Assembly: GCA_013375475.1 (NCBI GenBank)
Contig: JABXKD010000020.1
Location: 1-47,783, forward strand
Length of the DNA: 47,783 nucleotides
Direction of reading: 5' to 3'
DNA from: Promethearchaeota archaeon
GTDB taxonomy: Archaea > Asgardarchaeota > Lokiarchaeia > Sigyniarchaeales > SOKP01
A model generated the notes under the pieces. It ran no database searches, was not told the DNA's origin, and saw only the letters and a list, made by a program, of their open reading frames with translations. Positions 13,151-14,030 of this stretch are shown here, piece after piece (the stretch's first letter is position 1; each line of letters opens with the position of its first letter). The position numbers and the translations under genes are program-made.

Positions 13151-14030
13151 CTATTCCTTAGTTTCTTCATCAAGTTCTTTTTCTGATTCTAAAGAGATTT
13201 CAGAAACGTCTTCTTCTTCGACTTCATCGAACAACATTTTTTCTACCTCAGTTAATTCTCTTTCTTCCTCGGATACTTCGTAATCTTTTTCAAGTTTCGT
13301 TTTAGTTAATTCCGATATCTTTTTTGCTTGAACTTTTGCTAAAGCTTCATCGTTAATTTTAACTGTGTCGCCCATTCTTATATCTGCGTGCATAATCTTA
13401 ACAATAATCCCAAGAGTACCTGATTTTTGAATACATTGAGCTACTCCTCTGTCTACTCCTTCTTGAGCCGGGTGACCCGATTTTTTCATCGTGCCTGCCC
13501 TAAAAACCGTAGTTCGAGCTCGTTGTGAAGTTACTTTGCCAGAGACGATAATTTCTGTTCCTTTCGCACCGGAATCCATTATTTTTCTCAAAATGTAATA
13601 CCCGGCTCTTCTATAATGCCTTCCTCGATCTAACGAATACGCTAAACGCTCAGCCATAATTTGAGCGTTCAAATCGGGGTTTGGCACTTCTTCTACTTCA
13701 ATTTGGGGCATTAGGCTTAAGAGATTCGATATCCCTTAATTTTCCAGCCCAAATCGTTCTTGAAGAATGTCCGTAATCTCTTGAATACGCTTACCGCCTT
13801 TAAGCTAAAATGTCGAAACGACATTTAAATTTACCTATGACGAGTCCCGGTCGGGACGTTCTAAGCGTAATTCTTACTCCGAGTGGGGTTTTTTGTATAT
13901 CAACACCAGCAAACCCTGCCCGTACGAGTTCAGATCTTAGGTATTCGTTGATTTGCATCAACTTGATGCCCTGCTCAATTTCACTTCGCGGGAGTTTTCC
14001 TCTTGCGATAAAGTGTTTAGCGAGTGGCAC
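13151..14030 (-). CDS. rps3: 30S ribosomal protein uS3, four predicted exons: 14030-14010, 13979-13831, 13799-13741, 13710-13151 (262 aa spliced)
   Basis: SD GGTGA (14040-14036) + GTG at 14030; joined exons give MPLAKHF|IEQGIKLMQINEYLRSELVRAGFAGVDIQKTPLGVRITLRTSRPGLVIGK|GGKRIQEITDILQERFGLE|MPQIEVEEVPNPDLNAQIMAERL...; 789 nt continuous frame; expected operon position. Confidence 0.9.
13711..13740 (-). other. Putative BHB-like mRNA intron 3 in rps3 (30 nt, carries an in-frame TAA)
   Basis: ATTAAGGGATATCGAATCTCTTAAGCCTAA; 9-bp stem TTAAGGGAT/ATCTCTTAA, exon pairing GGGC/GCCC; central helix imperfect. Confidence 0.75.
13800..13830 (-). other. Putative BHB/BHL mRNA intron 2 in rps3 (31 nt, frameshifting, inside the KH GxxG loop)
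   Basis: ATTTAAATGTCGTTTCGACATTTTAGCTTAA; stem AAATGTCG/CGACATTT; helix AGGT/GCTT each followed by AAA; removal restores IGKGGKR. Confidence 0.8.
13980..14009 (-). other. Putative canonical BHB mRNA intron 1 in rps3 (30 nt, in frame)
   Basis: ATCGCAAGAGGAAAACTCCCGCGAAGTGAA; outer GCTAAA/TTGAGC, central CACT/AGTG, bulges TTA and AAA, inner TCGC/GCGA + GAG/CTC; absent from the upstream duplicate HFIEQ. Confidence 0.8.

Follow-up and report, generated by a model that had tools for sequence, protein, structure and literature searches.

In the bulge-helix-bulge (BHB) layout of precursor tRNAs, the last six nucleotides of the upstream exon contribute four central base pairs and two bulge nucleotides, and the RNA is cut after the second bulge nucleotide. 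An intron in the cbf5 pre-mRNA of Crenarchaeota was reportedly described by Watanabe et al. in 2002. Here, we describe a stretch of 47,783 nucleotides (nt) from a Promethearchaeota archaeon (assembly GCA_013375475.1, contig JABXKD010000020.1, forward strand; referred to below as the window) in which the gene for ribosomal protein uS3 (rps3), on the minus strand at 14039..13151, consists of four exons separated by inserts of 30, 31 and 30 nt. On sequence evidence, these inserts are very probably BHB introns of the uS3 mRNA that are cut out by the splicing endonuclease EndA, with the exons joined by RtcB.

The closest described system is the cbf5 pre-mRNA. According to the available passages of Yokobori et al. 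2009 (PMC2738675), a hetero-oligomeric EndA excises its BHB-type intron in Crenarchaeota (Desulfurococcales and Sulfolobales), after which the exons are joined, and as of 2009 pre-mRNA splicing had been confirmed in no gene beyond cbf5. The uS3 inserts share with the cbf5 intron, so far as those passages describe it, their location in a protein-coding gene and a patchy distribution among related species that points to gain and loss. Each cbf5 gene has one intron, whereas the uS3 mRNA would have three; cbf5 introns are known from Crenarchaeota rather than Asgard archaea; and cbf5 splicing has been shown experimentally, whereas that of uS3 is what we infer here. The host genes differ as well, being those for uS3, an E2-like protein and a histone, while cbf5 itself is uninterrupted in this genome: the homologue identified by TruB_N matches is one open frame of 355 amino acids (aa) with no stops.

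A 2023 review (PMC10485636), in the part available, puts the number of archaeal genes spliced by this endonuclease at “at least two”, namely cbf5 and HVO_1309, and regards the discovery of more as likely; these two are the only spliced archaeal mRNAs described in the literature that was searched. The HVO_1309 mRNA of Haloferax volcanii also has a BHB motif and is cut by the splicing endonuclease, as reported in the accessible portion of PMC7714728. By the same partial account, it has a single site and belongs to a euryarchaeon with an alpha2 enzyme, in contrast to the multi-intron, essential ribosomal protein gene considered here. For Asgard tRNA genes, the consulted sections of a preprint (10.64898/2026.10.13.758758) report repeated gains of BHB introns that are patchy among close relatives, with no arrival route identified. 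Those introns resemble the uS3 inserts in being short intervening sequences at BHB boundaries; they differ, as far as these sections go, in that they interrupt tRNA genes and in that the intron-rich classes are Jordiarchaeia and Atabeyarchaeia, rather than the Promethearchaeota relatives compared here. The text of this preprint makes no mention of mRNA, cbf5 or ribosomal-protein introns. In the literature searched, BHB introns are reported neither from Asgard protein-coding genes nor from any gene for a ribosomal protein; subscription journals or supplements could hold such a report.

In eukaryotes, HAC1/XBP1 splicing is a regulatory, stress-induced process in which IRE1 cuts stem-loops and a tRNA ligase or RtcB joins the ends. 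It is similar to the proposed uS3 splicing in that a short intron within coding sequence is removed without the spliceosome, sealed by tRNA ligase, and alters the reading frame. The endonuclease is different, with IRE1 acting on stem-loops and EndA proposed to act on BHB motifs here.

The uS3 gene and its reading frame

The uS3 gene belongs to a minus-strand ribosomal protein operon, where two open pieces of it are found between uL22 and uL29; the upstream piece matches the Pfam family KH_2 and the downstream one Ribosomal_S3_C. An earlier note on this DNA, made from the sequence alone, had proposed that uS3 is encoded in four pieces separated by inserts of 30, 31 and 30 nt, and had named the three junctions; reading of the minus strand and location of the inserts by script gave the same arrangement. 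The start had been placed at 14030 and the product given as 262 aa. The gene begins instead at 14039, with a GTG codon (14039..14037) that aligns with the ATG or TTG starts of uS3 in relatives, and the product is therefore 265 aa.

Exon 1 (14039..14010, minus strand; 30 nt) codes up to ...KHF and is followed by intron 1 (14009..13980; 30 nt), which is in frame and free of stops. Exon 2 (13979..13831; 149 nt) encodes the KH domain up to ...GLVIGK (KH_2, E = 6.6e-08). Intron 2 (13830..13800; 31 nt) shifts the frame, and unspliced reading stops at a TAA at 13802..13800. Exon 3 (13799..13741; 59 nt) codes GGKRIQEITDILQERFGLE, and intron 3 (13740..13711; 30 nt) contains an in-frame TAA. Exon 4 (13710..13151; 560 nt including the TAG stop at 13153..13151) encodes an acidic tail and carries the Ribosomal_S3_C match (E = 3.5e-21). 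All features are on the minus strand, and all three inserts begin with AT and end with AA, as the earlier note had observed; its account of a frameshift from insert 2 and a TAA from insert 3 in the unspliced message is likewise borne out. Translation of the unspliced message from the start codon stops in intron 2 after 79 residues.

Removal of the three inserts in silico gives a 798-nt frame that encodes a 265-aa uS3. Compared with the product of the uninterrupted open reading frame (ORF) of the closest relative, G014, this protein shows 97.3% identity over 263 aa without gaps, and it aligns end to end with the uS3 of nine other relatives at 77-90% identity. Cutting after the second nucleotide of each bulge, as had been proposed, restores the frame at all three sites and yields a uS3 that is gap-free against relatives; the motif IGKGGKR is rebuilt as predicted, and so are HFIEQGIK and GLEMPQIEVEE. 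The uS3 coding sequence is free of lesions other than the three inserts.

The inserts are real DNA. Another sample from the same study yielded a 2924-nt DNA contig that matches 13683-14100 without a single difference or gap, so all three inserts are present in the DNA of that sample too, which speaks against the misassembly that the earlier note had considered. That note had also raised the case of a pseudogene accompanied by an intact second rps3. A search of the whole source genome (G000; a 3.92-Mb draft in 288 contigs, with completeness of 100% and estimated contamination of 6.41%) gave a single uS3 (Ribosomal_S3_C) match, that of the interrupted gene. The attribution to a probable Asgard host is supported by the related genomes, which are Promethearchaeota or Promethearchaeia.

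Structure at the proposed exon-intron junctions

The BHB arrangement outlined above is consistent with the description in the available part of PMC5829648. Intron 1 forms a canonical hBHBh' structure: the central helix pairs CACU of exon 1 with AGUG of the intron (4/4 Watson-Crick pairs), with UU|A as the 5' bulge and AA|A as the 3' bulge; UCGC/GCGA makes up the 4-bp inner helix, and five of six pairs form in the outer one. Intron 2 forms a relaxed BHB, in which the central helix AGGU/GCUU has two Watson-Crick and two G-U pairs and both bulges are AA|A; a small internal loop sets its 8-bp hairpin, AAAUGUCG/CGACAUUU, apart from the central helix, and its outer helix is offset by 2 nt. Intron 3 has a weak center, a 7x7 internal loop in which two G-C pairs lie between U.U and A.G. 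Its bulges are AA|A and AA|U, its inner helix has 9 bp, its outer helix, AUUUGGG(C)/(G)CCCAAAU, has at least 4 bp, and its two central pairs are placed exactly between the inner and outer helices.

The earlier note had assigned a 4-bp helix with 3-nt bulges to every insert. Judged by two 3-nt bulges separated by a 4-bp helix, intron 1 is a BHB outright and intron 2 is one in relaxed form; intron 3, with two of four central pairs, is not one in the strict sense. The flanking helices abut the bulges in introns 1 and 3 and are offset by small loops in intron 2. Of the boundaries that leave the product unchanged, the best helix belongs to the one at the second bulge position in all three introns. 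Local folding relative to shuffled sequences gave z-scores of -2.69 for insert 1, -0.73 for insert 2 and -3.27 for insert 3.

The outer helix at site 3 (AUUUGGG/CCCAAAU; window 13690..13765) is coding sequence and is found in intron-less relatives too, so the mRNA already has a hairpin where the intron sits.

Distribution of the uS3 inserts among relatives

The 5' part of uS3 was aligned from 23 same-genus loci and compared with 80 further loci from Promethearchaeota, Promethearchaeia and other Asgard archaea. Within the genus, insert 1 is present at 0 of 21 informative loci, insert 2 at 0 of 22, and insert 3 at one of 23 (genome G008, with a related 30-nt sequence). In the wider set, site 1 is occupied by a 31-nt, frameshifting insert at three loci (L052, L059 and L071) and site 3 by a 30-nt insert at two (L055 and L051, the latter being L015 of genome G008). 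Site 2 is occupied only in the source genome among the 22 informative same-genus and 80 wider loci. By this comparison with related rps3 genes, which the earlier note had suggested, the inserts are lineage-specific, absent from close relatives, yet they lie at fixed sites that are occupied in other species. The same-site inserts come from five other metagenome-assembled genomes (MAGs) from several projects, and their removal gives an ORF of 265-268 aa at 5/5 loci. Because the 31-nt inserts at site 1 shift the frame, they are not tolerable as extra residues.

The versions of an insert at one site differ in ways that preserve pairing. The interior of the site-1 insert here (UCGC...GCGA) bears no relation to that of the others (UUAGG...CCUAA), with the CACU/AGUG helix and the bulges kept, and the last seven nucleotides of the insert and its exon partner are identical between versions. 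The inserts at site 3, of which there are three versions, show paired differences in the inner helix. In the center, G008 has A-U in place of one G-C pair and U-A in place of U.U, giving three of four central pairs. A synteny scan of the window against 18 regions from 10 same-genus genomes (~374 kb, 849 ORFs) found well-supported inserts with stops or frameshifts only in the uS3 genes of the source genome and G008.

The 3' two thirds of uS3 and ~10 kb downstream are ~96% identical to G014 (L006/L115). The first ~300 nt of uS3 are clearly more diverged from G014 and in places resemble other species. This pattern suggests that the intron-bearing end of uS3 may be a recombination mosaic or part of a chimeric contig.

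Probable introns in E2 and histone genes

A genome-wide search for inserts of ~30 nt in other split genes had been proposed in the earlier note. A scan for BHB structure combined with ORF fusion was without power, mainly because of ordinary gene-gene junctions, and a protein-level comparison with G014 was therefore used instead; this second approach did find further inserts. It covered ~1.44 Mb of G014 DNA and looked for inserts bearing stops or frameshifts, a design that is blind to introns common to both genomes and to stop-free, in-frame introns. In the source genome, an E2 ubiquitin-conjugating (UQ_con) gene on the minus strand of contig C226 (~31561..31073) carries inserts of 39 and 30 nt with stops, both with a 4/4 central helix (UCCC/GGGA and CUCC/GGAG). 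An archaeal histone gene (PF00808) on the minus strand of contig C77 (29484..29245) carries a 30-nt canonical BHB insert, AAAG/CUUU, with a stop codon. All three inserts are absent in G014. The reverse search, for inserts in the first ~731 kb of G014, found none beyond one dubious case of 240 nt.

The intact E2 and histone proteins of G014 were then used to search 121 genomes of the family, and the 13 E2 and 5 histone matches with internal stops or split matches were followed up. Inserts of 29-39 nt were present in 18/18 of these, at five E2 sites and three histone sites: the E2 gene has inserts of 29-32 nt in thirteen other genomes of the family, including three inserts each in G005 and G023, and the histone gene has 30-nt inserts in five others. 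Removal of the inserts restores the frame in 14/14 E2 genes (2 of them cut by contig ends) and 6/6 histone genes. Under a strict rule that the boundary must give the same protein, a 4/4 central helix forms in 21 of the 25 E2 and histone instances, and the canonical ones number 19; for shuffled introns under this rule, the corresponding figures are 5.5% and 1.0%. The four exceptions are L317-397 (2/4), L318-397 (3/4), L319-202 (3/4) and L322-178 (2/4). Covariation between the exon half and the intron half of the helix is seen at E2 site 397 (ACGU/GCGU, AUAU/GUGU, AUGU/GCAU and ACAU/GUGU). A safer count than 25 instances is that of distinct intron sites, which number at least 11 in three gene families when uS3 is included.

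Because the accessible text of preprint 10.64898/2026.10.13.758758 warns that relaxed BHB shapes arise often by chance, two null models were run on the six inserts of the source genome (three in uS3, two in E2, one in the histone gene), with the intron either shuffled in place or moved within its gene. A 4/4 central helix at a boundary giving the same product was found for 5/6 inserts, compared with 5.5-6.4% expected (P ~3e-6 to 6e-6), and 3/6 are fully canonical, compared with 0.9-2.3% expected.

The hexamer ATCTCG lies at or beside the hairpin loop in four introns at unrelated sites, where ~0.17 occurrences would be expected from hexamer frequency in the genome. The carriers are both E2 introns of the source genome, L314 (E2 site 397 of G127) and L330 (histone site 170 of G133). 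The shared hexamer may reflect a common origin or a shared binding site.

Several other candidates from these searches were rejected. The insert at C226 ~29155 is positioned upstream of the start methionine, that at C247 15903-15938 is a 28-nt indel at a gene end or an intergenic spacer, and that at C225 ~4761 is in a tRNA gene rather than a protein gene. The candidate at C36 6231 is in a tandem-repeat protein with 51-66% identity; the repeat frame there (~6180..6581) is rich in W, F, R and C, with units like WFWCRFVYWLRLRF, and has stops relative to its G014 counterpart. Eight further candidates, judged from alignment rows, had 50-77% identity or lay before the start methionine, including an 11-nt “split” at C111 ~20913.

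Splicing machinery and tRNA introns

The earlier note had argued that uS3 synthesis would depend on EndA and RtcB, and the genome encodes the enzymes in question: two EndA paralogues and RtcB, the latter as one match of 560.7 bits. The EndA genes lie on contigs C215 and C133 and the RtcB gene on C211. Each EndA paralogue, 200 or 202 aa long, contains the N-terminal as well as the C-terminal Pfam domain; the tRNA_int_endo matches score 99.1 and 70.4 bits, and 127 residues align between the two at 34% identity. The catalytic triad of EndA is Tyr-His-Lys. The histidine of “LEHSPF” is found in only one of the two aligned paralogues, a difference from which the pair would appear to comprise one catalytic and one structural subunit. 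Asgard archaea are described, in the available part of PMC5829648, as having an (alpha-beta)2 EndA with an L1 loop linked to broad specificity.

ARAGORN identified 29 tRNAs in this genome, which is scored as 100% complete, and called introns in 14 of the 29. These numbers suggest that the tRNA set is heavily interrupted, with many tRNA genes probably too interrupted to be recognized. A 30-nt insert interrupts the T-loop region of a tRNA gene on the minus strand of contig C225 (~4761) and is missing from the orthologous gene of G014; tRNA introns thus also differ between these two close genomes.

Proposed mechanism

In the proposed mechanism, each insert would pair with the adjoining exon to form a 4-bp central helix between two 3-nt bulges on opposite strands. 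EndA, probably a heterotetramer of the catalytic and structural paralogues, would cut after the second nucleotide of each bulge. RtcB would then ligate the exons and probably circularize the introns, and the mature 798-nt frame would be translated into a normal 265-aa uS3. Since unspliced translation ends in intron 2, the sole uS3 gene would depend on tRNA-splicing enzymes, and the cell most likely must splice the uS3 mRNA before it can make uS3.

While the structured junctions and the restored protein are consistent with EndA-dependent splicing, several observations weigh against it. Intron 2 has a G-U-rich center with offset flanking helices, and its folding energy (z = -0.73) is unremarkable; it is therefore not notable by folding energy alone. 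Intron 3 has only 2/4 central pairs and so falls short of a strict BHB. The E2 and histone instances come from kin genomes and are not independent, and the figure of 21/25 therefore overstates the number of separate events. The genome-wide scan adds no support: of 215,741 structural matches to a canonical BHB, 1,298 fuse two open frames of at least 60 aa, compared with 1,214-1,390 for matches shifted by 30-90 nt. At the RNA level, we infer rather than observe uS3 splicing because no RNA read covers any junction. The RNA contigs, from three runs of which one gave nothing, cover only 13152-13302, 13336-13486 and 12943-13093, in the 3' exon and uL29; they reach none of the uS3 junctions, and no joints across these are reported from them. 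Finally, archaeal transcription and translation are coupled, and splicing would have to outpace the ribosomes.

Alternative explanations

Insert 1, being in frame and free of stops over its 30 nt, could conceivably be retained in the source genome as a 10-residue insertion (IARGKLPRSE) near the N-terminus, with introns 2 and 3 alone being spliced, which also counts against removal of all three. This alternative is unlikely. Insert 1 is the most canonical BHB of the three, with four Watson-Crick central pairs and a 4-bp inner helix, and the same-site inserts of L052, L059 and L071 are 31 nt long, making their removal obligatory. Moreover, the same-genus alignment shows extra residues at this position in no relative.

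A second alternative accepts that the inserts are removed from the RNA, and attributes this to another endonuclease and ligase or to self-cleavage rather than to EndA and RtcB. The deviation of inserts 2 and 3 from the canonical motif fits such a process, and the role of EndA in this organism is a prediction from sequence. Self-cleavage by a group I or II ribozyme is hard to reconcile with inserts of 30-31 nt, given that the ribozyme core spans hundreds of nucleotides, and an Rfam search of 12800-14400 found no family match (the one hit, at E = 0.89, scored 23 bits where the gathering score is 80). The junction geometry is of the EndA type, the frame-restoring boundary is the cut after the second bulge nucleotide, and EndA and RtcB are both encoded. 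Removal by other enzymes is accordingly considered quite improbable.

Programmed translational bypassing would allow ribosomes to hop over the inserts with no RNA splicing, as occurs in phage T4 gene 60 and at the “byp” elements of Magnusiomyces mitochondria. A bypass element is defined by matching take-off and landing codons around the skipped stretch. The uS3 inserts are short hairpins within coding sequence, and insert 2 is preceded by a lysine AAA codon and ends in AAA, which provides a matched pair at that site. There are no matched codons, however, at insert 1 (UUU before it and none at its end) or at insert 3 (GAA before it and none at its end). Bypassing also does not predict a 4-bp helix between exon and intron with 3-nt bulges, which was found in 5/6 inserts here and 21/25 in relatives, with ~5% expected by chance, and which shows covariation between exon and intron. 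We consider bypassing highly improbable.

Although a broken unspliced frame in a 288-contig draft with 6.41% estimated contamination might be taken as a decaying pseudogene or an assembly or strain artifact, with a functional uS3 elsewhere or unassembled, this has a very slight chance of being correct, given the sole uS3 match in a genome scored as complete, the gap-free match to G014 with no other lesion, the inserts in a contig from an independent sample and at the same sites in five other MAGs, and a BHB geometry that random damage would not produce.

Genomic context

In the rest of the operon, Pfam matches identify uL22 (16659-17138), uL29 (12922-13119) and the RNase P subunit p29 (12617-12910), all on the minus strand. 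Between uL22 and uS3 is a stretch of ~2.6 kb (14040..16658) with minus-strand ORFs at 14287-14715, 14767-16041 and 16301-16609, none of which has a Pfam match. Because the uS3 start follows the uL22 stop by only a few tens of nucleotides in same-genus relatives, this stretch looks like an insertion into the ribosomal operon.

Implications

The mechanism proposed for uS3 splicing has been described before. The novelty lies in which genes are interrupted, in how many introns one mRNA carries, in the lineage concerned and in an apparent turnover of introns. A single-copy gene for an essential ribosomal protein would need three splicing events, in a domain where very few spliced mRNAs have been documented. 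If true, this would broaden the known substrate range of EndA and RtcB. It would also mean that gene callers mis-annotate such genes as fragments or pseudogenes, with an effect on marker sets based on uS3.

Intron presence varies between genomes whose proteins are 97-99% identical, up to three introns occur in one gene, and the AUCUCG loop motif is common to introns at unrelated sites. We tentatively suggest, as a possibility that leaves considerable room for doubt, that this Asgard family carries a turning-over population of ~30-nt, EndA-dependent introns that colonize protein-coding genes. If the uS3 reading is true, the family would offer an Asgard system in which to study how introns enter and persist in coding genes under coupled transcription and translation. 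If the introns do spread between sites, core ribosome and chromatin genes would depend for their expression on the tRNA-splicing machinery, and the family would represent a living prokaryotic case of mRNA intron invasion in the closest relatives of eukaryotes.

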